Counted from the stretch's first letter, positions 4,951 to 57,396 are shown. The stretch is DNA of 64,000 bases from Chthoniobacterales bacterium (GCA_035601575.1 DATNNZ010000051.1:2148-66147), one strand, 5' to 3'. Made by a program: numbers and translations. The notes: generated by a model from the letters alone, not told the origin.

Positions 4951-6647
4951 AACAACGATTTTTCGATTTTCGTCGCACGTTCCTGCAAAGGCAGATGTCG
5001 TTGGGTTTCCGCTTGGCAGAAGCTTTCGAGCGGAGCGAACGTTTGGCCCACCTCCTGGTAGAACGCGGTAATGGCGTGCCGCAACTGCGTTTCGACCGCT
5101 CCCGCTAGTTCTTTTCTTTTTTCGTCCATCCGCAGCCGATATTCGCGTAAAATGTGGCGACGTCGAAAGACGGCATACACGGTACCGGTAAACGCGGCCA
5201 GACCCGCAACCGTCCCGGTAACATCCAGAATTGCGGCATGAGCCAGAGCGGCGATAATCGTAAAAATTCCGCCGGCGGCTGCGACTCCGGCCGGGACGCG
5301 AAGCCAGCGGGCGGTTTCGCCAAACCACTCCTGGAGTTGTTGCTTGATTTTCGCATCAGACATTTGCTCGAGCAGTGTGAGCTGAAGCTTCTGTAAAACC
5401 ACTCCCCGTTGACTGACAAATCCAGGAATGGCCGGCCGTACCTGTTTTCTGCTGTCAGACTCAAATTGCGCCTGCACCTTGTCTTGCAATTCTTGCCAGA
5501 TTAGCCGCAGATCCGATTCTAACAGCTCGAGCGCGTGCTCGATCTTTTCTCGTACTTTCGCCTGAACGTCACTTTCAATTTTATCCTGAAAATCTTTTTC
5601 CCAGCGTCCGCCGGAGAAAATCATCTTAAAGGTCTGCAAAAAGCCAAGCCGTTCCTCGAGTAATTTCTCGCCACGCTCCCGACAAGCGTCATAGGCCATT
5701 TCCATTTCGCGAATGAAGCCACCGACCTGTCGTAAAGTCTGCTCCTTGCGCACGCCGAGACTGCCTCGGATCGAAGTGATCCTCTCCTGATCCGCTTTGA
5801 GAAGGTCGAGCGCGCTTCGGAGTTTGGCTTGAATGCCCTGCAGGACCACTTGTCCGGTTTGAGCAATGGATCGCAGTTTGCCTCCGCGTTCGTCGCTATT
5901 GGTGACAGTAGTGGAGATCCAGTTTTCTAACGCGCTGAAATTACTGTTTTGCCAGAGAGGATCCTCTTGGCCTTTTCGGTCCAACTTTGCTTGCAACGCT
6001 TGTTTGGCTGAAACGGCGAAAATTGGACGGCTGGAGCCGAGTAACTGGAGGATCGTTTGTTCCAAATGCTGAATAATCGTTTGCACTTCTGCCTGGGTTC
6101 GGAGATCGGCCTGTTGCAGCACGAACACGATATTCTTCTTCCACCCATGGCCGAGTATACGAAGAAAGTCCCAAGCAGAGGCGGCCCAGGGATTCACGAC
6201 CGAGAAGACGAAGATGATCAGATCGGCAAGTGGTACGAAGCTAGTGGTAATATCCTGGTGACTGGTAACGATGGTGTTGGTCCCGGGAGTATCGACAACG
6301 CTGAAGTTTTTTAAGAATTCGATCGGGAGATAGCGTTCGGTGACGTCTTCGGCGATTGGAACATCTCGCGCAGAGTCCGCATATTTGAATATGTAGATTT
6401 TGTCCGTTGCCGGAAGAACATCGATCTTGCAAAATTCTTGGCCGAATAACGCATTGAGGAGCGATGACTTACCGGCCTTTACTTCACCGACCGCCACGAA
6501 CAAAAGCGGGTCATTGAGACCGGCGCTCAGGCTCTGCAGGTTCTGGATGGTAGCGTCTGGTTCACCCGTTTGTTGCGATAGTGTAACGAGCGCGCTCAGG
6601 GCCTGGCTGAGGTGCGCACGCGTTTCAAGGTATTTTTCTACGACCAT
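4926..6647 (-). CDS. dynamin-family large GTPase (bacterial dynamin-like protein) with a C-terminal membrane hairpin
   Basis: G1 motif GEVKAGKSSLLNALFG, G3 motif VVDTPGTN and G4-like LQQADL. A long helical stalk is followed by a hydrophobic stretch, VPAGVAAAGGIFTIIAALAHAAILDVTGTVAGLAAFTGTVYAVF. Confidence 0.75.
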   Translation of the reverse strand: MVVEKYLETRAHLSQALSALVTLSQQTGEPDATIQNLQSLSAGLNDPLLFVAVGEVKAGKSSLLNALFGQEFCKIDVLPATDKIYIFKYADSARDVPIAEDVTERYLPIEFLKNFSVVDTPGTNTIVTSHQDITTSFVPLADLIIFVFSVVNPWAASAWDFLRILGHGWKKNIVFVLQQADLRTQAEVQTIIQHLEQTILQLLGSSRPIFAVSAKQALQAKLDRKGQEDPLWQNSNFSALENWISTTVTNSDERGGKLRSIAQTGQVVLQGIQAKLRSALDLLKADQERITSIRGSLGVRKEQTLRQVGGFIREMEMAYDACRERGEKLLEERLGFLQTFKMIFSGGRWEKDFQDKIESDVQAKVREKIEHALELLESDLRLIWQELQDKVQAQFESDSRKQVRPAIPGFVSQRGVVLQKLQLTLLEQMSDAKIKQQLQEWFGETARWLRVPAGVAAAGGIFTIIAALAHAAILDVTGTVAGLAAFTGTVYAVFRRRHILREYRLRMDEKRKELAGAVETQLRHAITAFYQEVGQTFAPLESFCQAETQRHLPLQERATKIEKSLLEIKSQVG

Positions 6648-9482: not shown

Positions 9483-10538
9483 TCAAGAACTTGGTTTTTG
9501 AATTCCGGCGGGAGTCGTTCTGACCTCCGCTACCGGAGGTATCGCTTTGCGGCTGCGGATTTGCAGCAGGAGATTGGCAAGCAAGATGAGTCCGCCACCG
9601 GACACAACGGTTAACGAGAACCGTTCGTTAGCGTAATCAATGTGAGCCAGCACGCTGAGCTGAGCCGGTAGAAAGAGAGCGAACACCGTCGTAAACAGCG
9701 GCTCAGTCGTATACACGATGCCTGCTTCCGTTGAGTTAATCGCCGGCTGGCAATGGTTCATGAGATTAAAGGCAAGCAGCGTACAGAAAAATACGAGTAA
9801 GAAGGTGAGGAAGATTTTCGGAAACGAATCAATCGCAGTTGCGTAATTCATTCGCTCGGGCCGGGTACAAAGTGCGGCCAAACCGAAGATCAAGCCCATC
9901 GACAGAAACATTGTTGTCGAGACCATGCGAGTTCGATTCGGGCGAAAGACCGGTCTTTCCAACCAGAGGATTTGGAAGGTGAAGAACACTGCGCTAACGA
10001 GAGTCTCTAATTCACCTCGGCCAATTCGGAACGTACTCCAATCCATATTGGCCAGAATCCCGATGCCGGTAACCACCATGAAAATGGCCAATAGATCGCG
10101 GAATCCGGGTGCCGTCCGGTTGCGTGAGAAATGATAGAGCGGCAGAAGGATGCAATAGGCTTGGGCAAGGAATGCGGATATCGATGCGGAAGTGTAGGCG
10201 AGGCCATCCATTTGAAAGAGCATTCCTGCTCCGCCGCAGAGTCCGAGACCCACTCCCTGGATAACTTCGCGTTCGCGAAGGCTACGGAGTTCCCTCCAGC
10301 CGAAAGGTAGCATTAGCAGGCCGGCGAGAAGAAAACGAATACTTCCTTGAAGGCTGACGACGAACCAGCTTGAGGCTGCAGGCATTGATTGTAAGTACAG
10401 CAACGTCAAAGCCTTGCTGACCGGGAAACTGATACCCCAAAACAGACATGCCAAAACCAAAAGCAGAATGGCCTTTCGGTGATTCAATCCGGCGGCATCC
10501 AGCCTGGTTGCCGCGGCAATATCGCTAACCTGAGCCAT
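9483..10538 (-). CDS. DMT superfamily (EamA-like) transporter
   Basis: About ten hydrophobic segments arranged as two EamA-like halves. Confidence 0.7.
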   Translation of the reverse strand: MAQVSDIAAATRLDAAGLNHRKAILLLVLACLFWGISFPVSKALTLLYLQSMPAASSWFVVSLQGSIRFLLAGLLMLPFGWRELRSLREREVIQGVGLGLCGGAGMLFQMDGLAYTSASISAFLAQAYCILLPLYHFSRNRTAPGFRDLLAIFMVVTGIGILANMDWSTFRIGRGELETLVSAVFFTFQILWLERPVFRPNRTRMVSTTMFLSMGLIFGLAALCTRPERMNYATAIDSFPKIFLTFLLVFFCTLLAFNLMNHCQPAINSTEAGIVYTTEPLFTTVFALFLPAQLSVLAHIDYANERFSLTVVSGGGLILLANLLLQIRSRKAIPPVAEVRTTPAGIQKPSS

Positions 10539-23948: not shown

Positions 23949-24115
23949 GTACCGGATCAGAATGCAGAATCTCGAATCCAGAAGGTAAGATCTAGGATTT
24001 AGAAGCCAGCGTGGATACTCCTCTGGCAGTTAGGACAAAGCAGTCCGGTAAGCGTTGTGCGCCAACATAGCTAAACGGCGTACTGTGAGCCGCCGCCTTC
24101 ATCTGGCTTACACGC

Positions 24116-24253
24116 TTGGCTCACACATCCTCTCGCTGTCGCTCGACGATGTGCCGCCGTCGCTGCGCTATGGCGCGCCCTAGCCATGCAGTCAAAGAAA
24201 ATCACCAGACCAGCCGCGACGCAGGCTTGGCGGAGTCGGATTTCGCCCTACCT
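24116..24253. repeat. island repeat element, copy 1 (direct repeat of 30805-30942)
   Basis: 24116-24188 is identical to 30805-30877 (73 nt). The next ~61 nt are about 80% identical by eye. It ends in the TCGCCCT motif. Confidence 0.95.
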
Positions 24254-24297
24254 TTCCGCCTGTATCGCCCTACCTTTTCTGCGTGTTTCGCCCTGTC
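24243..24297. promoter_or_regulatory. three iteron-like TCGCCCT(A/G) motifs at 22-23 bp spacing
   Basis: tcgccctacct occurs at 24243 and 24265, and tcgccctgtc at 24288. The same motif recurs at 26339, 26380 and 30932. Confidence 0.45.
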
Positions 24298-24326
24298 GGG
24301 GCGTGCTACAATCGTCCTTCCCGTTT

Positions 24327-26186
24327 CTAAAGCCACCGTCTCCAGAATGGGTACCAGGAGGGCGTGTTTCCATCCGCATCGACCGGATGGATTCGTCTCT
24401 TGCGATAGCCTTTTTCGCAATGTTTGACGATCGCCGTGAATTTGGGCAGCGACATCAATTCGAACGGTTTAATCAGATATTCCTCTTCGCGGGTACGAGT
24501 TGTACTGTGGCTACCACGGCCGCGAGTGTAGGATCGTTTCCAGATCATTCGTTTTCCGATGAAATCAGCGGAGCTTTCCGCACACGCCCGGTCGGCCGCC
24601 TTGAAAATGATACGGTTTCGTAAATTAAGAATAGTGACTTCCGCTTTTTCCTTCGATCCGAGGGCCGGCAGAAATGAAAGTTTCGATTGCGCCGCAAGCA
24701 CTGTGGTCGTCTGCGCCTGGCGAATAACATCGACATTGCCGTCTGATTCAGTAATGAAACGTTGAGCTTCGTCTTGCCAGCAAACCAAGAGGTTATCGTC
24801 TTCGAATTTCCGGCTTCCAGGTGGCCGTGGATCGAACCGGCGCAAAGCGTGAGTATAAAAAAGGAGTTTGAGAATCGTGGTGATATAGCGGCGTTCGGTC
24901 TGATATTTCTGGGGCAAGGAGACGCAGATGATGGCGCCTTCATCCAAAGCCGCAAATTCAAAACTATTCTCCTCCGCACCGAATACTTCGCTAATCTCAG
25001 GATTGGTGAAGTAATTAAGATAATTGTAGATCGTCGAAATCACGCCCCCGAGCTGTTCCGCCGGTTGATGCAAAAACCCGTTCAGGAAATGATCGTAACA
25101 TTCGCGAGCGTCCGGATTACCTGCATTCTTTAGCGGTTCCAGTTGTTGAAGCATCGCCCTGAGCACCGGTTGATACTGCAGCATTTCCAGGAGGTGGTGC
25201 ATTGTTGGCACCAGCCCGAGCAGCCGAAAAAATTGGATTCCTCGTCCGATATTCGCGTGGGCCTGGGTTTTGAAAAAACCCTTATCTTCGGTGCCAGAGG
25301 TCAGAGATGAGGCGGTATCAACAATGACGGTTGCATAAGTCGACCATGGTATCGTTTCATCGGAGAGGAGATTAAAGCGGGTCGGCGGGGTCCAATCTTC
25401 AGATACGCGATCCGGTCTGGTTTGCAGAAGTAACAGATCCTGTTCGCGTCCGTATCTCTTAGCCATCTTCACCAGCGTTTCGTGATAAATTCCCTTCTCA
25501 TCACAACAGAGACCTCCCCAGTCTGGCTCATTCCGAAAGACGCTGTGGAGCAGAGCATTGATGGCAAACGTTTTTCCAGCGCCGGTATCGCCGGTCACAA
25601 GCCAGCCACGGCAGAAATCGTTTCGATCCCAATGAAAACCGGCCAATGAAGCGGAGATTGAAGTGCGAGAGCGTCCGGCCGCGGAGTAGAAGGCGAGGGG
25701 TAGACTAACCAGGATCGGAGCGATGCTGGCCCAGCCAATGATCGGGTAAAAAAACCAGCTGAAACTAAGTAGTATGCCCGCGAGCAGCAAGACCGTGGGC
25801 GAGAACAAAAAGTCGAATCGTTCCCTTTGGCGTTCCGCGTCGATCCAGCGCCGTGCTCGATCGACTGCCCGAAAGAGCGACGTCTCGCTCGCGACGTAAC
25901 GACGCACATAGCAAAGCGTGCCGCCAAAGCGAATCTGCAGAAGAAAACGAGGAAGCGCGATTGTCCCCGTATCGCCGGACCGGACGAGCGGAAACAAAGG
26001 CTTTGCGCGAATCTGAAAGCCTGACCGTTGATCGACCTCGACAAAGGCGGTTCCGGGCGAGTAGTTAGGCAGCCGCAGGATGGTCCCGTCGGGTCGACGA
26101 TAAGAAAGCGGATCGGGAAGCTCGGAATTGACGAAGCGTTCAGAGCGCTGGAAAGGATTCCCAGTAGTTTTCGCGCTTTCCCACAT
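24327..26186 (-). CDS. type IV secretion coupling protein-like P-loop ATPase (TraD/TraG/VirD4-like) with an extra N-terminal domain
   Basis: Walker A VTGDTGAGKTF and Walker B LLVCWQDEAQRF. Two TM segments precede the ATPase, after a soluble stretch of roughly 130-160 aa (depending on which start is used). The track ORF starts at 26273; I prefer MWESAKTTGNPF at 26186 because it aligns with the truncated paralogue. Confidence 0.6.
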   Translation of the reverse strand: MWESAKTTGNPFQRSERFVNSELPDPLSYRRPDGTILRLPNYSPGTAFVEVDQRSGFQIRAKPLFPLVRSGDTGTIALPRFLLQIRFGGTLCYVRRYVASETSLFRAVDRARRWIDAERQRERFDFLFSPTVLLLAGILLSFSWFFYPIIGWASIAPILVSLPLAFYSAAGRSRTSISASLAGFHWDRNDFCRGWLVTGDTGAGKTFAINALLHSVFRNEPDWGGLCCDEKGIYHETLVKMAKRYGREQDLLLLQTRPDRVSEDWTPPTRFNLLSDETIPWSTYATVIVDTASSLTSGTEDKGFFKTQAHANIGRGIQFFRLLGLVPTMHHLLEMLQYQPVLRAMLQQLEPLKNAGNPDARECYDHFLNGFLHQPAEQLGGVISTIYNYLNYFTNPEISEVFGAEENSFEFAALDEGAIICVSLPQKYQTERRYITTILKLLFYTHALRRFDPRPPGSRKFEDDNLLVCWQDEAQRFITESDGNVDVIRQAQTTTVLAAQSKLSFLPALGSKEKAEVTILNLRNRIIFKAADRACAESSADFIGKRMIWKRSYTRGRGSHSTTRTREEEYLIKPFELMSLPKFTAIVKHCEKGYRKRRIHPVDADGNTPSWYPFWRRWL

Positions 26187-26300
26187 GGAGGAAACAGTAG
26201 TCGATTGACATATAATAACAAGCCAAAAGATAGTTGCGTAATATTTACCCTGGTTGCGACCGATGGAGTCCACGTGTCGCTCAAAATCCGGGGAGGTGCC

Positions 26301-26349
26301 GGCTCACACAGCTTTCCCGCTTTCGCTCGAGCTGTGTGTCGCCCTACCT
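26301..26349. repeat. island repeat element, copy 2 (short, degenerate)
   Basis: ggctcacaca..cgctttcgctcga..tcgccctacct shares both ends of the 24116 and 30805 element but lacks the middle. It lies about 115 nt upstream of the coupling-protein start. Confidence 0.6.
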
Positions 26350-26399
26350 ATCGTGCTTCCACCGCGCGCTGCTGACTGGTCGCCCTCAGCTAGTTCTGG

Positions 26400-27386
26400 T
26401 TACTGGACCTTTAGTTCTGTTACAAAAGACTCTTCACCTTTGGCAAATGCGATCCAAACCGAGTGCGTCTTCGGGTCGACGGCGAGCGTGTGGGTGCCGG
26501 CCGGAGTCGCAACGTCGCCGAGCGATTTTGCGGCTTCCTCGGTTTCTTCCAAGACGGTGAGCTTTCCTTGTCCGGAGGCACAGTAGATACGCTGGTTTCC
26601 GGGATCGAACGCGATCTGATCCACTCCTTCGGCGATATCGACTGAACCCAGCGATTTTCCAGAAACAGAGTCCAATACAACCAGTTTACCGTTTTTTCCG
26701 GCGGAAAACAGCCGATGGGTTTTCGGATTGAAGGCTAAGCCGTGAGGGCCCTGGGCTGGGATTGTTGACCAGGTAGCCGCGACCGAATTTGGTCCGGGGT
26801 CAATGACCAGCGTGACCGGTTGAGACTTGATGTTCTGAAACACCTTGTCACTGATCGGATCGTAGACAACGAACTCCGGATCGGCTGGAATTTTGATGGC
26901 GGTGACGATTTTTTTGGTGCTTGGATCAACGACCCAAAGGTCTTGTCCATCGTCATGGCAAACGTAAACCAATCCATTCTTTGGGTTATAGGCGAGCGCA
27001 TCGGCTGGTCCAGGTAACGAGACCGTGCCGGTTATCTCGAGAGTCTGACGATTAATAATCGCGAGCTTATGCTCGGCGCTGATACTGGCGTAGTACTGGT
27101 TGTGATCGTTATCGACCACGGCTCCCTGGATCGTACCGGTACTCACGCTCTTGATCAGCTTTCCATCCGGAAGACTGATGATATCCAAGGTTTTGTTGCC
27201 AGTGTGAGCGGCCAAAAGGCGATTCAATTTTTCATCGACTTGCAGGTAATCAAATCTTCCCTTGGTTCCGGGCAAAGCAATTGGCTGACCGAGAGTTAAT
27301 GGTGCGGGCTCAGCCAAAAGTGCTGTTGGCAAAGAGAGCACGAAAACCGCGATGGAAAAGCAAGCGCTTGTAAGGTTCGTTTTCAT
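26400..27386 (-). CDS. secreted YVTN/YncE-like seven-bladed beta-propeller protein
   Basis: Signal peptide and repeated ~40-aa blades (..G..P.G.A.D......YV.....). It begins 22 nt downstream of the TonB-dependent receptor. Confidence 0.7.
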   Translation of the reverse strand: MKTNLTSACFSIAVFVLSLPTALLAEPAPLTLGQPIALPGTKGRFDYLQVDEKLNRLLAAHTGNKTLDIISLPDGKLIKSVSTGTIQGAVVDNDHNQYYASISAEHKLAIINRQTLEITGTVSLPGPADALAYNPKNGLVYVCHDDGQDLWVVDPSTKKIVTAIKIPADPEFVVYDPISDKVFQNIKSQPVTLVIDPGPNSVAATWSTIPAQGPHGLAFNPKTHRLFSAGKNGKLVVLDSVSGKSLGSVDIAEGVDQIAFDPGNQRIYCASGQGKLTVLEETEEAAKSLGDVATPAGTHTLAVDPKTHSVWIAFAKGEESFVTELKVQ

Positions 27387-27408
27387 GATGATGTAGTTCG
27401 ACCGAGTA

Positions 27409-30219
27409 TTAAAACGTAAACTTCATTCCTGCCTCGTAAGTGAAATCGTAGTACTCCTGCTGGATCACGCGATCGCGTCTACCTTCATAGATTCGCCAAG
27501 GCGCATCGGTCAGATTCTTGACGTTGAAATAAACACCGACGCCGTTAGCAAAGGTGTAGCTCGCCGCGAGATCCAGGGTCGTTCGAGCATCAAAGTACAG
27601 GTCCGTTCGGGAGCTGGCACCCACCGAGCTCAGATTTTTGTCGGTATGTTGCGCCGCTAAGGTGACGTCGATACCGTACTTTCGATAGAAAATGCTCCAG
27701 TTATACAAATTTCTTGAGGTGAAAGGGAGTTGGGTCGTTTCGCCCGGACGCGCTTCACCTTGGCTATCAACGTAGGTGTAGTTGAACCCGGCTCCGAACC
27801 CATTCAGCGGTCCAGGTAGAAAAGCAAACTGCTGTTGGTAATTAAACTCCACTCCTCGAGCGTGCGCATTTGGGCTGTTGAGAAAGGTTGATTCGTTAAA
27901 GGTTACCCCGTTGATCGGGACGCGAATGGTACGGGTAAAGATGTAGTCCGAGAACTCCTTATCAAAAAAAGCGACGGTGACCAAGGCGCTAGGTGCTGGG
28001 TAATACTCTAGCGTGAGATCGAAGTTGTTGGCGGTGGTCGGCTTGAGGCCGGGATTGCCGGTGACAATCGTCTGGTTGCCTACATTGGTAGTGGACGATG
28101 CAGTGACTTGATTGAAAGCTGGGCGACCAATTGCGGTTGAGTAGGCAAAGCGCGCTTGCAGATTGTCGAGGATTTCGTATCGGGCTTGGAAGGTGGGAAA
28201 GTAATTGATGTAATTGCTGTTCCGGTTCACGAAATGATAGGACGCGGGATTATTAGGATCCGAGCCGGGGGAATTCTCGTTTGCTCCGTAGGTGGCATCC
28301 GTTGCTTCGATCCTTAGTCCGCTGAGCAAGTTCAATTTGCCGAAAGAGATGTCGTACTGGAAGTAACCGGCATAAACGTTCTCGAAGTCATCGAAAAACG
28401 CTTTTCTGCTGGCTACCTGATCGGCCACAAAGCTGCGAACAAAATTGCCGCGATTGGCATCAAAGAATTTACTAACGAGGCCGAAGTCGGGCGAAAAGCC
28501 GAGCTTGTAGTTACCGCTGTAAATGCTGTTGAACTGGTTGCGCGTTACGTCGGCTAACGTGAACGCTCCATTGAAGGCAGTGTAAGTCTCTGGATCGTTG
28601 TAGGCACGCTTAGTCCGGAAACGCAGATTGGTCCCAAATTTGAAGATGCTCGGAAAATTGAAAATCGTGAATGGAACCGTTACATTCGCGCTTCCGGCGA
28701 TTTCCGTATCGGTTGATCCGTTATTATCAAACGATAACTGGTTAAAAGAGTATTTTTTGGGATCGAAAACATCGGAGCCAGCCAGCAGGAACTGCGGTTG
28801 TCTCATGAGTCCTTGGTCGTTGTAAGATATCGTCACATCAGGCTTGGTCACAAAACTGATGTTGGTGTCGCGCGGATTGTAGTCAGTGGCTTGGGCAAAC
28901 GAGCCCTTATAATCGATAATGAAGGGACCCAGATTATTTTTACCGCCTCCCTGCACGATCCAGTTATCAAAATGTTCTTCGTTGTGGCGAATGTTGGAAT
29001 TGAGCTGCGCATCCTTTACCAGAAAGTTGCCCGGGTGTGTCGGATCGTTTTGCGGTTGGAAAAAAGTGCTCCCGTCCGGATTCGTGAGTTGGGTTCCGCT
29101 GCCGTTTGAGCCGTCGAGACCCGAATAATTTTTTATCTGCCGGTCCACGCTTTCCACATAACCAGCATTCACGAAGCTGATGTAGTAGCTGTTTTTGCTG
29201 TCCGGTCGATAGTCGAAAGTTGCTCCGTAACCGTGTAATCGTCGGTTGTATTGGTAACGCCGTAAATCAATGCTGCTCAGGATTTTGTCGGCACCAATTG
29301 GCTGTTTCGAGTCGGCAAACGCTGGTTCAAAATCATCAACCCCGCGCCAATCTTCGTAATAGCTGAATTGACCGAGTACGCCAAAGGGCCGGGGATTGGC
29401 GAGACCTTCGCCGCTGCCTGCGTTTTTTGTATCGATCCCTTTCCCGTCCTTAGAGGTTTCATCAGGGGCGCCTGTCGAATTCGTGGGCGACGAATAGGAT
29501 GAAGCCAAAGGATTCCCTCCAGGTCCTAAGCCGAAGCGAAAACCGCCGATGATTTCGCCATTAATGATTTGATAACGGGGCCGGAGCGGTTCGTATCCGG
29601 TGCCAACGCGTCCTTGGAGGATCGGTTTATCAGAATCGAAGGCACTCCGCGGGGTGAGTTCGATTTGTCCGCCCAAGGCTTCGGCGTCCATCTCCGGCAG
29701 GTTGGTGTCGAACACGGTAATTTGGCTCACCAATCCGGATGGGATCTGGTCAAACGCGACATGCCTTCCGGTCGAATCGGTTGATGGAACTCGCACGCCA
29801 CCAAAAGTGACACCGACCAAGTTGGAATCTAAGCCGCGCACGGTTACAAAACGTCCTTCACCGGTGTCGTTCTGTACGCCGACGCCAGGCAACCGTTTCA
29901 ACGAATCGGCGAGATTCACATCGGGATAGTGGGCAATCTCTTCGGCGGATTGGACTCGCTTGATATTGGGGGCATAGCGCTCCTGCTCGATTGCGGACTC
30001 CTGCCGCGTGGGATCTTCTGCGGTGACGACGACCTGCTCGAGATGGCTCGACGGCGTTGGCGATGCATCTTGTGCGACCGCGGAATGCGGGATCGAAACG
30101 AAGAGCGCCCCCGCCAGAGAAACAAAAATAGGCAGCGATGGCTGCGCAAAAAGTACTTTACGTAGTTTCACGAACCCGGTCCTTCCCCAGATTGGTTTGA
30201 GAGGGTTTAAAACCGACAA
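27409..30219 (-). CDS. TonB-dependent outer-membrane receptor
   Basis: Plug domain (DSLKRLPGVGVQ, FVTVRGLD), a long beta-barrel, and a C-terminal ..YEAGMKFTF. The true start may be the GTG at 30171 (VKLRKVLF.. signal peptide). Confidence 0.9.
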   Translation of the reverse strand: MSVLNPLKPIWGRTGFVKLRKVLFAQPSLPIFVSLAGALFVSIPHSAVAQDASPTPSSHLEQVVVTAEDPTRQESAIEQERYAPNIKRVQSAEEIAHYPDVNLADSLKRLPGVGVQNDTGEGRFVTVRGLDSNLVGVTFGGVRVPSTDSTGRHVAFDQIPSGLVSQITVFDTNLPEMDAEALGGQIELTPRSAFDSDKPILQGRVGTGYEPLRPRYQIINGEIIGGFRFGLGPGGNPLASSYSSPTNSTGAPDETSKDGKGIDTKNAGSGEGLANPRPFGVLGQFSYYEDWRGVDDFEPAFADSKQPIGADKILSSIDLRRYQYNRRLHGYGATFDYRPDSKNSYYISFVNAGYVESVDRQIKNYSGLDGSNGSGTQLTNPDGSTFFQPQNDPTHPGNFLVKDAQLNSNIRHNEEHFDNWIVQGGGKNNLGPFIIDYKGSFAQATDYNPRDTNISFVTKPDVTISYNDQGLMRQPQFLLAGSDVFDPKKYSFNQLSFDNNGSTDTEIAGSANVTVPFTIFNFPSIFKFGTNLRFRTKRAYNDPETYTAFNGAFTLADVTRNQFNSIYSGNYKLGFSPDFGLVSKFFDANRGNFVRSFVADQVASRKAFFDDFENVYAGYFQYDISFGKLNLLSGLRIEATDATYGANENSPGSDPNNPASYHFVNRNSNYINYFPTFQARYEILDNLQARFAYSTAIGRPAFNQVTASSTTNVGNQTIVTGNPGLKPTTANNFDLTLEYYPAPSALVTVAFFDKEFSDYIFTRTIRVPINGVTFNESTFLNSPNAHARGVEFNYQQQFAFLPGPLNGFGAGFNYTYVDSQGEARPGETTQLPFTSRNLYNWSIFYRKYGIDVTLAAQHTDKNLSSVGASSRTDLYFDARTTLDLAASYTFANGVGVYFNVKNLTDAPWRIYEGRRDRVIQQEYYDFTYEAGMKFTF

Positions 30220-30485
30220 GCAGACCCTAGAGTCACCGGATGCGATTTTGTGGTCACATTGATGAAGGGGAGTGACCGGCGTTGCAAAATGAGGGACTTC
30301 AGAAGACTATTTTTTGTCATAGCTGCTTTATCTTGAACGGTGTTGGAGGTTGGACCTGTTCAGAGTGAAGGACGCGGCATCGCCACGTCGTCCACCCATT
30401 TTCGCGGTACTAGAAACCAAGATTGGAATGGCCGGCTCTTTTTGATCCAGTTGCCGGAATTGTTGTCCCAACTGCAGTTCGGACG

Positions 30486-30734
30486 TTAAAAAAGATTTAT
30501 GACATCCGAAGGGGCGTGCCGGACTGAGCCGAACTTACGGCGCCGGCAGCCTGGTAGTGTCCCTCGAGCTCTCGGCCGGGGCGCTAAAGCCCAGCGACGG
30601 CGGCCTGTCGATTGGTTCGCCAGCCGCAGGGTGGCTCCGTCCGGTCGACGATAAGAAAGCCGGTCGGTCAGCTCTGAACTAGCGAAGCGTTCAGAATGGT
30701 TGAAAGGAGTTCCAACGTTTCCCCGTTTTTCCAA
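30486..30734 (-). pseudogene. truncated 5' fragment of a second coupling-protein-like gene
   Basis: GTPFNHSERFASSELTDRLSYRRPDGATLRL aligns with GNPFQRSERFVNSELPDPLSYRRPDGTILRL of the 24327-26186 protein. Nucleotide homology runs about 30623-30715 versus 26070-26165 and then stops. Confidence 0.7.
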
Positions 30735-30804
30735 ACGGAGGAAAGGTTAGATGATTGGGTATGAAAACAAGTCGCGCTACCAATCATCGCAAGATCGTGC
30801 GGTG

Positions 30805-30942
30805 TTGGCTCACACATCCTCTCGCTGTCGCTCGACGATGTGCCGCCGTCGCTGCGCTATGGCGCGCCCTAGCCATGTAGTCAAAGAAAGTCACAAGACC
30901 GGCCGCAAGGTAGGCCCGGCGGAGTCGGGTATCGCCCTGTCT
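30805..30942. repeat. island repeat element, copy 3
   Basis: See copy 1. It lies about 70 nt upstream of the truncated coupling-protein fragment. Confidence 0.95.
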
Positions 30943-30978
30943 CTCTTTGGGCGCGTTCGCCTCCGGTTCGGCGATAAA

Positions 30979-31416
30979 TTACTTACCCCAGCGGTTTACG
31001 ACGGCGTTGGTAACGGCTTCGCGAACAGCTTCGTGTCGCATTGCCCACTGGAAATGATAAATCGGATTTTCGTACTGTTCGGCGAATTCACGCTTCATTG
31101 CTTCTGCGATGCGGGTCGAATCGACTGGCCCTCGCATTCGAGAGACCACGTCCTCGACGATTTCCAAGCAATACAAGATCAGCATCTTTGCTGCGCGCTG
31201 AGAAATATCATCGAGCTCTTCCGTACACACCAAAAAGAAGTTTTCCCAAGAAACCTTTGTGACGCCTTTGAGCCACTGCTCCTTCCCCTCATAAAACACT
31301 CCTTGTTTTCTGTAATTTTCCAGAAAATCTTCCAAACTGAGTGGTTGACCATTGCTCGAGAATGACCATTTCTGAGTTTCTGTCGAGATTTGGCGAGATT
31401 CCTTAGTGGCAGCCAT
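30979..31416 (-). CDS. hypothetical protein, paralogue of 32263-32865 (unrecognised family)
   Basis: It shares ENFF.V, L..YCL and H.F..A.RH..VR.AV.NA..NRWG with the 200-aa protein on the other side of rep. That paralogy supports this strand over the antisense track ORF 30751-31365. Confidence 0.6.
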   Translation of the reverse strand: MAATKESRQISTETQKWSFSSNGQPLSLEDFLENYRKQGVFYEGKEQWLKGVTKVSWENFFLVCTEELDDISQRAAKMLILYCLEIVEDVVSRMRGPVDSTRIAEAMKREFAEQYENPIYHFQWAMRHEAVREAVTNAVVNRWGK

Positions 31417-31485
31417 TTTATTGCTTCTCTTATTGACTAATTCGGTTAAAAGATTCTTGTAACACCCTACCCCAGAGAAAGTAAA

Positions 31486-32220
31486 GTGCGTAAGTATAAC
31501 AAAGTTTTCGGAACGTTACCACTATCGAATCGGGAGGATCAGCTTGGTTTTGGTGACGATCTAATCGAGGCCTACTATAAGCTGACCAAAAACGAACGCA
31601 GCATCGTGATGTCGATCGTCGACCGATTGAAACCCGGAGTGACAGCATTTGAGTTTGACGATTTTGGCCTGCAGTCGGCGGCGCTTAAGCTGCTGACCTA
31701 TCATCGACTGGTTCTACATAATGGAGATAAGCAGAATTCGGTGCTCTATGCGCGCTGGCTCAGTGCCATCACCATGGTAGAGAAGAAGATGATTCTGCAC
31801 ATCGATCCAGGATTACACCGCCATCTTGAGCGCCTTAAAGACCACCAGAGAGAAGATGCGGAGCGATCGTCGGTGAAGTTGGCCAGCCAGTACTCGATTC
31901 GTCTGTACGAATGGGCTTGGAAATGGCGCAACGTGGGACTAAAGCGAATCTCGATACCAAAAATTCGCACAGTTCTCGGCGTGGACGAGGTGCGTGATGC
32001 TCAGGGCAATATCGTGAGCGAGAAATGTTTGGTTCATTGGCCTAATCTCAAGCAACGCGCCATCGATCGGGCCTTGCACGAGATCAATGAAAAGACCGAC
32101 CTCGGGATCCGTCTGGTTGCGGTTGGACAGGCTAAGTATCGGCGGGTGCTCTCGCTCGCCTTTGAGATCAAGGAGAAAAAGAAGCGCACCCGAGGGAACG
32201 GGGCGGCATTGACTAAGTAG
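31486..32220 (+). CDS. plasmid-type replication initiator, Rep_3 (RepB/initiator replication protein) family-like
   Basis: DDLIEAYYKLTKNERSIV near the N-terminus, then SQYSIRLYEWAWKW..GLKRISIPKIRTVLGV....NLKQRAIDRALHEINEKTDLGIRL....KYRRVLSLAFEI. This matches the Rep_3 pattern as I recall it. Confidence 0.65.
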   Translation: MRKYNKVFGTLPLSNREDQLGFGDDLIEAYYKLTKNERSIVMSIVDRLKPGVTAFEFDDFGLQSAALKLLTYHRLVLHNGDKQNSVLYARWLSAITMVEKKMILHIDPGLHRHLERLKDHQREDAERSSVKLASQYSIRLYEWAWKWRNVGLKRISIPKIRTVLGVDEVRDAQGNIVSEKCLVHWPNLKQRAIDRALHEINEKTDLGIRLVAVGQAKYRRVLSLAFEIKEKKKRTRGNGAALTK

Positions 32221-32262
32221 AGTCAGAAGGTCGTTCCACGGTGCGAACGGCCAGCCGAAGAC

Positions 32263-32865
32263 GTGTTCGAAGGGAAACAAATGGGCGACTCACATAAGAA
32301 CTCGCCGGAAACCAACGGAAAAGGATTGAACGCCGATGAGATTCTTGCGCTGCGAGAGTTGCGGCTCAATTATCCGTATAACTTTGCTGAGCCGCCCTAC
32401 CCTCAGATCCATTGGCAGCTATTCGAATTGATCGATCATGCATCCTTCCCATTCGCTAAAACGGATGCCTGTGACAAGTGGAACTGCAGAGAAATCTCGC
32501 CAGAAAACTTTTTTCAGGTTCTCGATCGGGATCGATTGGATGAGCCGCGGTTTTTGAGTGCTTTGACGGTTGGCAAGCTGGTTTGCTACTGCCTTTTGGT
32601 GGCTGAATCGACCAGTGAATCGTTCCATATAGTGGCGGAGGAAGTTGAGCTTCGAGCCGATACTCTGTTGGAGCGAATTCGGTTGAATGCGGAGTATCTT
32701 AGCCTTGGGATCGAAGAACACTCGCCCTGGCACCAGTTCTTTGTTGCTGTCCGACACCCCGTGGTGCGTTGGGCCGTGAACAATGCTTTGATGAACCGTT
32801 GGGGCGCGGAACGCTACCCGGTCAGCAGCCCGTCCGCTCTAGCAATTGAGCCGGACGGTAGATAG
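32263..32865 (+). CDS. hypothetical protein, paralogue of 30979-31416
   Basis: Same conserved blocks as the 145-aa protein. The start could instead be the internal MGDSHK. Confidence 0.6.
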   Translation: MFEGKQMGDSHKNSPETNGKGLNADEILALRELRLNYPYNFAEPPYPQIHWQLFELIDHASFPFAKTDACDKWNCREISPENFFQVLDRDRLDEPRFLSALTVGKLVCYCLLVAESTSESFHIVAEEVELRADTLLERIRLNAEYLSLGIEEHSPWHQFFVAVRHPVVRWAVNNALMNRWGAERYPVSSPSALAIEPDGR

Positions 32866-32975
32866 CGAATTCAGGTGAGAAACAGGCGGTCGTGCCGCCT
32901 CCGCTCTTCGAGCTGCGGCGAGCCCGCAGAGACAAGGCCGCGCCAAAGCGAAGCGACGGCGGGGTTGACAGGCTG

Positions 32976-33323
32976 TTAGAAAATCTCCGATTTTTCCGAT
33001 AACGGCTCCATTAAAATACGGATGCCGATCTGATCTCCAGCGGGGATCGAGGCGACACGAAAATTGGCGAGCTCCTCAAGCAACTGCCGGCGCGCGGTGA
33101 AGGCGCGGCCCAGGGTCAATTCCACATCGGCAAATGTATAGCGAAGAATGATTGACTTCTCGCCGTCGGTATCGATGCATTGGAGGTATGCATACGGGAT
33201 GCACTTCGTTCGCGGAGGTGACGCTAACTCAAATGTGCAGGCAATGCCGGCATGATTTCCGGCGTGCGTTACATACGGTTGGTTTTCAGGCCGAAGAATA
33301 GGTATGGCTCTCGACACGGACAT
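32976..33323 (-). CDS. hypothetical protein (orphan)
   Basis: An ORF with no recognisable motif. It lies downstream of folC on the same strand. Confidence 0.35.
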   Translation of the reverse strand: MSVSRAIPILRPENQPYVTHAGNHAGIACTFELASPPRTKCIPYAYLQCIDTDGEKSIILRYTFADVELTLGRAFTARRQLLEELANFRVASIPAGDQIGIRILMEPLSEKSEIF

Positions 33324-41001: not shown

Positions 41002-41323
41002 CGCCAAAGCAGCCTGTCGGATTGGCAGGCTGGGTTAAAAGGCGGCCTGATTATCTCATATGAAAAATCCTTGGCCCTCTCGACAGGCCGCCTTCGCAAG
41101 CCGCGGCGCGCCTGAGCTTTTAGAACGCGTGTGTCTTGGAGCGCGGTCGCGACGAAGCCTTGTGCGTAGTCGGGCTGCTCAAGCTCCGCTTCGCGGAGAA
41201 GGATTGGTTCTTTTGTTCCGTTCGCGAAGCGAAATTTGAGGAGGCCGTCTCCATGGCCAGCTTGCCTCTCATGCAAACTCACTATTTACAGTCACGCCCA
41301 ACTTCAAATCCGACGGACTCCTG

Positions 41324-57232: not shown

Positions 57233-57396
57233 AATAATATCATACTTCCCAGGGTTGGGGCAGACCACATCCCGACTGTGTCCGGCGGCTGCCGGAAGGC
57301 GGCCAAGCTTAATTAGGGGGGCGCCAAACCAGAGCGACGGCGCACGAGGATCCGCCGCCGTTCAGACCGAAAATTTCATCCTTAGGCCCAACTACC

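Follow-up and report, generated by a model that had tools for sequence, protein, structure and literature searches.

GTAG-tagged REP elements and the composites that they form, such as REPINs and the BIMEs of E. coli, are thought to be mobilised by RAYT transposases. Within the Verrucomicrobia, GTAG REPs have been described in Opitutus terrae (PMC3733652), and our literature search found no paper naming both Chthoniobacter and REP elements. In the window analysed here, that is the whole stretch of 64,000 nt from a Chthoniobacterales bacterium (GCA_035601575.1, DATNNZ010000051.1:2148-66147), direct repeats of 135 nt very probably represent members of a dispersed, modular, non-coding family of palindromic repeats of Chthoniobacterales, of the same kind as REP, BIME and BOX elements and MITEs. 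The family has not been previously described; its kind, REP- or MITE-like, is an ordinary one.

As with GTAG REPs and REPINs, the family appears to be extragenic and multi-copy, its head starts with GTAG (GGTAG), its stems covary between subfamilies and contain G-T pairs, and its members occur singly, as inverted pairs and in clusters. However, the type found in the window is about 230 nt long and has four internal structural modules, as opposed to a palindrome of 20-40 nt or a REP doublet of about 100 nt, and its best-conserved part is a module of 87 nt (hereafter M) nested between head and hairpin. The family also resembles MITEs and modular repeats such as the Correia elements of Neisseria, the enterobacterial ERIC and the pneumococcal BOX, all being 100-250 nt long, non-coding, intergenic and highly structured. 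Moreover, it has terminal inverted repeats of 13 nt and a presence that varies between close strains, as MITEs do, and its variable number of modules (one to five heads, M present or absent) recalls BOX. In contrast to MITEs, no consistent target-site duplication was found in the flanks of six full-length copies, which fits IS200/RAYT-type chemistry without being positive evidence for it. The interior module M is also better conserved across genera and genomes than the termini, the reverse of a typical MITE, which could point to M having a function of its own; this conservation is partly a matter of ascertainment, since the genome scan for the family required a 27-nt motif of M. To our knowledge, no autonomous insertion sequence has the same ends as the family.

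The repeats of the window and the genes that adjoin them are the following, the family being read on the minus strand of the window:

24029..24256, minus strand: copy 1, a full-length family member of about 228 nt (nhmmer with the full-length family profile, E = 5e-59, profile positions 2-221)
24116..24153, minus strand: hairpin H2 of copy 1 (CACATC-GTCGAGCGACAGCGAGAG-GATGTG) plus GTGAGCCAA, the 38-nt host part of the core, with a covarying stem
24154..24240, minus strand: module M of copy 1, 87 nt, TCCGACTCCGCC...AGGGCGCGCCATAGCGCAGCGACGGCGG, missing with exact boundaries at the orthologous site of L041 and L042
24261..24300, minus strand: two extra tandem heads with a period of 22-23 nt (on the plus strand, TCGCCCTACC at 24265 and TCGCCCTGTC at 24288)
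24327..26186, minus strand: coupling-protein-like (T4CP-like) ATPase of 619 aa, Walker A GDTGAGKT, Pfam TrwB_AAD_bind and TraG-D_C; it adjoins the repeat and is no part of it
26301..26348, minus strand: copy 2, a short member lacking module M, with head GGTAGGGCGA fused to a variant H2 (CACACAGCT...AGCTGTGTG) and GAGCC
30486..30734, minus strand: remnant of a coupling-protein paralogue, an N-terminal fragment of 82 aa, 77-78% identical in nucleotides to 26058-26194
30516..30612, plus strand: diverged inverted member adjoining the coupling-protein N-terminal remnant (nhmmer E = 2e-6 to 6e-8)
30805..30945, minus strand: copy 3, with head (GACAGGGCGATA), M (30843-30929) and H2 (nhmmer E = 6e-40)
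32931..32963, plus strand: inverted fragment of module M (AGGCCGCGCCAAAGCGAAGCGACGGCGG), intergenic between ORFs of 200 and 115 aa (nhmmer E = 1e-5)
41082..41177, minus strand: a member beyond the island that belongs to another subfamily (L032 type) and lies in the intergenic space 41002-41323 (nhmmer E = 6e-6)

The first-pass annotation had described copies 1 and 3 as direct repeats with a perfectly identical core of 73 nt, and this is borne out: 24116-24256 and 30805-30945 align without gaps over 141 nt at 90% identity, 73 bases being identical (134 nt at 91.8% by blastn). The differences are unevenly spread, with none in the core (0/38 and 0/35 for its two parts), 10/52 in the stretch that follows and 4/16 in the head, and the contrast between core and following flank is significant (73/73 vs 50/61 identical positions, Fisher p = 1e-4). 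Two sub-patterns of the core, 27-29 nt long, matched only copies 1 and 3 in the window when up to three mismatches were allowed, and found no match in 100 shuffles. The core thus described consists of the most conserved 35 nt of M and the 38-nt region of the H2 host hairpin; the latter part is shared without any difference by copy 3 and by the forms without M at the copy 3 site of L041 and the copy 1 site of L042. Recent gene conversion, which had been offered as one reason for the identity, is a plausible contributor given this distribution of differences, and the 73 bases were probably homogenised between nearby copies in this way.

Copy 2, noted earlier as a degenerate third copy, is likewise real, since it keeps the head and an H2 hairpin with compensatory stem changes and is conserved in the relatives L034 and L041, the latter having a tandem duplicate of it. 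In total, five members are significant in the 64-kb window, with E between 5e-59 and 1e-5 and one lying outside the island; copy 2 comes in addition and went undetected by the nhmmer family profile. What this adds to the first view of the locus is that copy 1 runs about 90 nt further, to 24029, that two inverted members exist (30516-30612 and 32931-32963), and that another member (41082-41177) lies beyond the bracketed segment. The state of these members varies between relatives. The independent assembly L034 has copy 3 with 100% identity over 139 nt and has lost most of the inverted member at 30516-30612, and the stretch 32931-32963 is missing in L041 and could not be aligned in L001. Five tandem heads stand at the copy 1 site of L041 and L042, and the whole element is missing from this site in L001.

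The presence of a truncated ATPase paralogue behind copy 3 raises the question of whether the repeats are mere by-products of a segmental duplication, with no mobile repeat involved. A duplicate of the ATPase gene's 5' end, together with about 40 nt upstream of it, is indeed present at 77-78% identity. However, the duplicated segment does not include copy 1, which is found downstream of the gene, and copies 1 and 3 are 92% alike, with their 73 identical bases, against 78% in the duplicated coding stretch. When the upstream regions of L041 were aligned, copy 2 did not align with copy 3, leaving the idea of these two as paralogues from such a duplication unsupported. A family found in many unrelated loci already contradicts this explanation by its dispersed distribution, and we regard it as very improbable.

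A full-length member of about 230 nt has GGTAG-headed ends and hairpins H2 to H4, with the M module of about 87 nt nested between head and H2. The 3' end is an inverted copy of the head, which gives the 13-nt terminal inverted repeats; these read GGTAGGGCGAAAC...GTTTCGCCCTACC in L011, L033, L036 and L038, and L037 has a variant head. In copy 1, which was aligned with the full-length members L011, L033 and L035-L038, the order on the minus strand is head GGTAGGGCGAAA, M, H2, H3, H4 and a degenerate 3' terminal inverted repeat (CTTTGTCCTAAC). The copies of the window thus differ in the modules that they combine: three heads, M, H2, H3, H4 and the tail in copy 1; head, M and H2 in copy 3, which lacks the 3' third (H3, H4 and tail); and head and H2 in copy 2. 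GGTAG heads are found in copies 1 and 2, in L033, L035, L036 and L038, and in the JAFAHI01 members, and degenerate heads (GACAG, GCAG) in copy 3 and L037. The head of the window type pairs with the tail about 200 nt away and forms locally only a weak GGCG...CGCC hairpin; the JAFAHI01 hosts are short palindromes with a stem of 8 bp and a loop of 4 nt.

The consensus fold comprises six helices, with 95.4% of cells paired and six pairs showing compensatory change, and only 1-2 of 500 shuffles attained the observed values. Helix 1 is formed by the 13-nt terminal repeats (92.7% of cells paired). The H2 stem covaries across members (CACATC/GATGTG, CACACC/GGTGTG, CACGTC/GACGTG, CACGCC/GGCGTG). On the minus strand, G-U pairs outnumber A-C mismatches by 25 to 7, which favours this strand.

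The 27-nt M motif was found at 25 sites in seven MAGs of Verrucomicrobiota/Chthoniobacterales, with 11 sites of the exact motif, on 11 contigs, in one MAG. The elements lie between unrelated genes. Those checked were situated between long ORFs, with no constant neighbour and no constant orientation relative to the genes; the ten neighbours at five sites were an ABC transporter and an NYN protein, DnaE2 and ImuB, LysR and RecJ, an HTH-cupin protein and a permease, and an SDR and a sugar kinase. Several copies sit at contig ends of short-read MAGs. The subfamily of the window was found in only about five distinct places in the metagenome scan, and so it looks low-copy. Viral contigs (IMG/VR) gave no match to the M motif and plasmids (PLSDB) none to the 228-nt copy 1. 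A phage origin and an integrated plasmid were both rejected, the relatives of the ATPase on plasmids being only 23-29% identical and limited to four plasmids. A regular-expression search of the loci for paired element ends around a long ORF returned only stray unpaired end motifs, compatible with chance.

This distribution bears directly on the proposal that the core is a functional site tied to the coupling-protein gene, be it an oriT, an operator or leader of that gene, or iterons of a Rep3-like module. The positions on which it was founded are correct, copy 2 preceding the ATG at 26186 by 115 nt and copy 3 the ORF 30486-30734 by 71 nt. A Rep3-like gene is also nearby (31486-32220), the heads of copy 1 have a period of 22-23 nt, and all five matches to TCGCCCTRYC in the window fall at repeat ends, against 0.8 expected by chance. 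However, no homologues of the coupling protein, Rep3 or the TonB receptor were detected by tblastn in any of the 25 motif loci, contrary to what this proposal predicts. Conversely, the more distant coupling-protein loci L005-L007 have the same 145-aa, Rep3-like and ATPase genes yet contain no family member, and in L001-L004, whose genes are 92-95% identical, the element could not be aligned at the matching intergenic spots. For the ATPase itself, more than 100 clusters share 63-98% identity. The spacing of 71 nt is a derived one, as L034 and L041 have about 190 additional nt between copy 3 and the truncated paralogue, and none of the island proteins scanned showed a relaxase domain. Rep3 iterons, suggested by the head spacing together with the Rep3-like gene, were rejected because the same heads bound members beside unrelated genes in loci without rep genes; moreover, the tandem heads are about 7 kb away from the Rep3-like gene. 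The first-pass annotation had itself named a repeat unrelated to these genes, or a lack of conservation upstream of homologous ATPase genes, as what would speak against a functional site, and by these criteria the reading fails. We consider a cis-acting role in conjugation or replication extremely unlikely.

The direct repeats might also be attL/attR scars of a mobile island of 6.7 kb or a substrate for its excision as a circle, as they have 73 identical bases, stand in direct orientation and bracket the ATPase, beta-propeller and TonB-receptor genes. The latter two genes are indeed an insertion relative to L005-L007. However, this inserted segment is not the bracketed one, which includes the ancestral ATPase gene. 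The island ORFs scanned yielded neither an integrase nor a recombinase, and the window contains no tRNA or tmRNA as an integration target. In the four relatives covering the junction, the ATPase and TPR genes are still adjacent. Gene order in L041 is that of the window, yet M is missing at both sites, and the repeat family is a dispersed one. Excision of the circle suggested earlier is thus possible in principle and unsupported by these comparisons, and we hold an origin of the repeats as island ends to be most improbable.

The comparison of close relatives gives a clearer picture of how the elements change. M is absent at the copy 1 site of L041 and L042 and at the copy 3 site of L041, where the genes are 96-97% identical; the window has it, as does L034 at the copy 3 site. 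The M-less junctions are exact (GGGCGATA|CA(C/T)ATCG in L041 and L042), and the junctions of M have an ambiguity of only 1-2 nt and no visible duplication. Since M is missing with exact boundaries at both sites in such similar strains, it is a discrete unit that has been gained or lost as such. Slippage between GGCGATAC and GGCGGCAC as a simple way of deleting M was rejected, as the predicted junction is two bases shorter than the one observed. M is also the part common to all the subfamilies found in MAGs. The repeats that host it in other genomes are of quite different types; one of them is a classical GTAG REP hairpin, with M in its loop. One MAG provides a textbook GTAG REP hairpin as host (GGTAGGGATGAGC-TCCG-GCTCATCC), the JAFAHI01 loci hold empty GTAG REP hairpins alongside filled ones, and L001 has an empty version of the JAFAIO01-type host. 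The closing stems that flank M covary (GGATGAGC/GCTCATCC, GGACGAGC/GCTCGTCC, GGAGGAGC/GCTCCTCC).

Mechanistically, and in this respect only, M may be likened to the IS200/IS605-derived PATEs and to REP-targeting insertion sequences (IS1397, IS110/IS1111 family), as it is gained or lost precisely without visible duplication, forms a structured hairpin and lies inside REP-like hairpins. Unlike these, it has no conserved flanking tetranucleotide, and its 87 nt are far below the size of any autonomous insertion sequence; we know of no transposase for M. It is conceivable, but in our opinion rather unlikely, that M (CCCGACTnCGC...AGGGCGCGCCAnAGCGnAGCGACGGCGG) is a self-contained element with its own function, either a very small mobile unit with precise, site-specific insertion into REP-type hairpins or an RNA that is structured and strand-specific and might, for instance, serve an unidentified transposon-encoded protein as guide or scaffold. 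The retention of the core across genera within changing flanks would be explained in this way.

A related suggestion, which we consider unlikely, is that M, either by itself or together with its closing stem, functions as a structured RNA transcribed from the minus strand, be it a multi-copy small RNA or a cis-acting element, the REP-like flanks only supplying the closing helix. Its conservation over several MAGs of different lineages would be in line with this, as would the covariation of the flanks as a closing stem, the P2 stem kept in 23-24 of 25 members, the compensatory changes in H2 stems and the excess of G-U pairs on that strand. However, G-T wobbles and covarying stems are equally expected of single-stranded DNA hairpins or of inverted repeats recognised by a transposase, and the conservation of the motif is in part an artefact of how the members were collected. 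Rfam 15 gave no match at the gathering threshold in the window, and in E-value mode the element stayed unmatched at E up to 10 in the island and up to 1 in seven other loci; a scan for promoter and terminator consensus sequences found nothing inside the elements. Neighbour and orientation are not constant either, M is dispensable at both sites in close relatives, and the P2 stem of copy 3 has two uncompensated changes on its 5' strand. Two further candidates were rejected: a small ORF in the core, as its ATG lacks conservation and the lengths of the indels are not divisible by three, and a hammerhead-like reading (CUGAUG...GAAAC in L033 and L036, by eye), as stem II is lacking and the motif is unconserved.

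A dispersed palindromic repeat family thus remains the explanation that we favor. Its members would spread and turn over as non-autonomous mobile DNA, their folded single strands probably being handled in trans by a hairpin-recognising transposase of the RAYT or IS200-IS605 type, an enzyme that we infer, together with local recombination. Effects on adjacent genes, such as that of hairpins at the transcript end after the ATPase gene, would be by-products.

For the annotation of such loci, our results remove a tempting false lead, as the identical core is not an oriT, an operator or an island boundary. Repeats of this kind break short-read assemblies and can mediate deletions. Should M prove to move by a mechanism of its own or to function as an RNA, it would offer a small and tractable new system, although the present evidence does not require either. 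To conclude, our study documents an undescribed structured repeat family in uncultured soil Verrucomicrobia, whose 87-nt module is exactly gained or lost between strains differing by only 3-4%; this makes M a convenient strain marker and indicates that the turnover of these repeats is ongoing.

The direct repeats with a 73-nt identical core in a less similar flank, as described in the first-pass annotation, are borne out. Indeed, 24116-24256 recurs in direct orientation at 30805-30945, over 141 nt with no gaps and 90% identity (91.8% over 134 nt in blastn of copy 1 against copy 3); 73 of 73 positions are identical in the core versus 50 of 61 outside it (Fisher p = 1e-4). Core sub-patterns were found at only two places in the 64 kb, copies 1 and 3, and in 0/100 shuffles, and the short third copy is also real. 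The best-supported reading is that these copies belong to a REP/MITE-like, non-autonomous family of structured repeats, of which several members and fragments would have built up at this locus, in intergenic spaces that change fast.

Genes and repeat members in the window
24029-24256, minus: copy 1, a full-length member with a degenerate 3' end
24327-26186, minus: coupling-protein-like ATPase with the domains TrwB_AAD_bind and TraG-D_C and a Walker A motif
26301-26348, minus: copy 2, the short third copy
26400-27386, minus: beta-propeller protein
27409-30219, minus: TonB-dependent receptor
30486-30734, minus: 82-aa N-terminal remnant of an ATPase paralogue
30516-30612, plus: extra member (family profile)
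30805-30945, minus: copy 3, without the 3' third
31486-32220, plus: Rep3-like gene
32931-32963, plus: extra member (family profile)
41082-41177, minus: extra member of another subfamily (family profile hit within 41030-41190), in an unrelated intergenic region outside the island, i.e. the ATPase/receptor locus
Within the island, minus: 145-aa ORF

The island is set among housekeeping genes, with folC and accD at one end and a TPR protein, a 5'-3' exonuclease, tsaD, ctpA and clpX at the other; searches of the window for tRNA genes and Rfam families gave nothing. The 41082-41177 member has its tail (GCCTGTCGAGAGGGCC...TTTTTCATAT) in common with L032, a locus of the other subfamily, and 57309-57342 is a possible further fragment (E = 0.13). 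By its named ATPase homologues the organism falls in Chthoniobacterales (Verrucomicrobiota), and the ATPase family is strongly conserved (>100 clusters, 63-98% identity), which is unusual and unlike a typical mobile-element gene. In several Chthoniobacterales, folC adjoins a set of 115-200-aa ORFs, a Rep3-like winged-helix protein, the 145-aa ORF and the ATPase (window 30979-33323 and 24327-26186; L005 6564-11860; L006 7783-11866). In more distant relatives, type IV secretion genes (TrbI/VirB10-like, VirB4-like) come after the ATPase; in the window lineage, housekeeping genes do.

In the relatives L005-L007 (ATPase identity 72-84%), the order is folC, one or two short ORFs, Rep3-like gene, 145-aa ORF, ATPase and then type IV secretion genes, and the TonB-receptor insertion is absent; L001-L004, with 92-95% DNA identity in the genes, have the receptor and beta-propeller insertion as the window does. 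Since the three intergenic spots with core-related sequence in the window could not be aligned in L001-L004 and hold other repeats there, the repeat does not accompany the ATPase gene as a conserved partner. The insertion relative to L005-L007 (window 26400-30734; L001 6743-9803) comes with a duplicated ATPase 5' end (77-78% identity); its receptor is intact in the window and in the close relatives L034 and L041, and fragmented into multiple ORFs in L001-L004. A different MITE-like element, of 302 bp and with perfect 28-nt terminal inverted repeats (TCCTGTCCCCGAAATAGCAGGTATATTG), separates the ATPase gene from the 145-aa ORF in L006 (9433-9734) and, with the same sequence, in L007. Attachment sites (attL/attR) or excision were also considered and rejected, as no recombinase was found among the scanned island ORFs and no junction supported them.

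A scan of one genome per species with the 27-nt core motif AGGGCGCGCCANAGCGNAGCNACGGCG returned 25 sites, confined to Verrucomicrobiota or Chthoniobacterales MAGs; one MAG has them on 11 contigs and another at 5 sites, and several are at the ends of contigs. By tblastn, homologues of the ATPase, Rep3-like, receptor, propeller or small-ORF genes were found in none of these 25 loci, nor did any of them align with the window, and the family profile found 0 members in L005-L007. The core had been read as an oriT, operator or leader of the ATPase gene, and this reading fails on such a distribution, as do Rep3 iterons; moreover, the 71-nt spacing between copy 3 and the remnant is derived, with ~190 extra nt there in L034 and L041. 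The window-type hairpin gave 8 metagenome loci at about 5 distinct places, among them L034, an independent assembly of the window locus in which 139 nt of copy 3 are identical. The checked sites lie between long ORFs, and the 10 genes inspected beside 5 sites are unrelated: ABC transporter and NYN protein, DnaE2 and ImuB, LysR and RecJ, HTH-cupin protein and permease, SDR and sugar kinase. The 27-nt motif was absent from viral contigs, the 228-nt copy 1 had no match in the plasmid database, and the element matched no Rfam family.

Full-length members (L011, L033, L036, L038 and, with a variant head, L037) measure about 215-235 nt and end in 13-nt inverted repeats, GGTAGGGCGAAAC and GTTTCGCCCTACC; copy 1 as first annotated covered only the portion common to copy 3. 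The consensus fold has six helices, with 95.4% of cells paired and 6 pairs showing compensatory change, values attained by 1-2 of 500 shuffles; slid controls were only 31-43% paired. Covariation is clean in hairpin H2 (CACATC/GATGTG, CACACC/GGTGTG, CACGTC/GACGTG, CACGCC/GGCGTG), whose stem in copy 2 is CACACAGCT/AGCTGTGTG. The excess of G-U pairs over A-C mismatches (25 vs 7) mildly favors the minus strand as the structured one. The cgacg-N9-cgtcg hairpin proposed for the core is not conserved family-wide; the partner of CGACG is instead an upstream CGTCGC, itself conserved (stem P2). That a nested module, M, is a functional RNA seems improbable. GTAG-tagged REPs have already been reported in Verrucomicrobia (PMC3733652). 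Given the GTAG heads, the strand-biased hairpins and the lack of consistent target-site duplications around full-length copies, the family would probably be mobilized by a hairpin-recognizing Y1 transposase.

L041 and L042, with genes 96-97% identical to the window in the same order, carry short repeat forms. At the copy 1 site of both, the head (the GGTAG-tagged 5' end) abuts H2 directly (GGGCGATA|CA(C/T)ATCG), and the copy 3 site of L041 has the same M-less form. The missing segment is 87 nt with exact boundaries and corresponds to M (24154-24240 in copy 1, 30843-30929 in copy 3). M is common to all subfamilies in other MAGs, where its surroundings differ greatly: in JAFAHI01 it occupies the loop of a GTAG REP hairpin of the classical kind, with empty hairpins in the same loci, and in JAFAIO01 it lies inside another repeat, of which L001 has the empty form. 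Given these M-less sites and different hosts, the family is modular (1 to 5 heads, with or without M and with or without hairpins H3/H4), comparable to BIME or BOX elements, and M behaves as a discrete unit that is inserted or excised.

The 22-nt head unit (GGGCGAnACACGCGGAAAGnT) is in five tandem copies in L041 (11900-11990) and L042 (2180-2270) and in three in the window (24241-24300); just downstream of the heads, a GGCTCCT microsatellite has two copies more in L042 than in L041. Copy 2 with ~100 nt of surroundings is tandemly duplicated upstream of the ATPase in L041 (9700-9743, 9845-9888) and L042, and single in the window and L034. L001 has two ~135-nt composite repeats (5798-5936, 6177-6309), ~375 nt apart, containing the hairpin CCCGGGGTTTT(TT)AACCCCGGG and a REP-like hairpin GCCCTGAAAGGGCGCTAG; they flank a diverged M-bearing element (6028-6127), and a 56-nt piece of this region recurs inverted at 9838-9893, just upstream of the ATPase gene.

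Counted on the minus strand, i.e. in gene orientation, copies 1 and 3 differ at 4/16 positions in the head, 10/52 in the next 52 nt (the 5' part of M), 0/35 in the following 35 nt and 0/38 in the final 38 nt; P2 of copy 3 has two uncompensated changes. The 73 nt combine the 3' 35 nt of M, containing the family's best-conserved motif, with the 38-nt H2 region, which is likewise identical in the M-less forms that L041 carries at the copy 3 site and L042 at the copy 1 site. Recent gene conversion, also raised in the first-pass annotation, is retained as a plausible contribution. As member pairs from different genomes lack such a sharp contrast in divergence between the two segments, local conversion between copies 1 and 3, 6.7 kb apart, would be the likeliest further cause of the identity.

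To conclude, the locus-specific interpretation is refuted and the explanation is ordinary; the repeat is real, and the family itself appears to be undescribed. One feature is of some interest, namely an 87-nt module that is precisely gained or lost.
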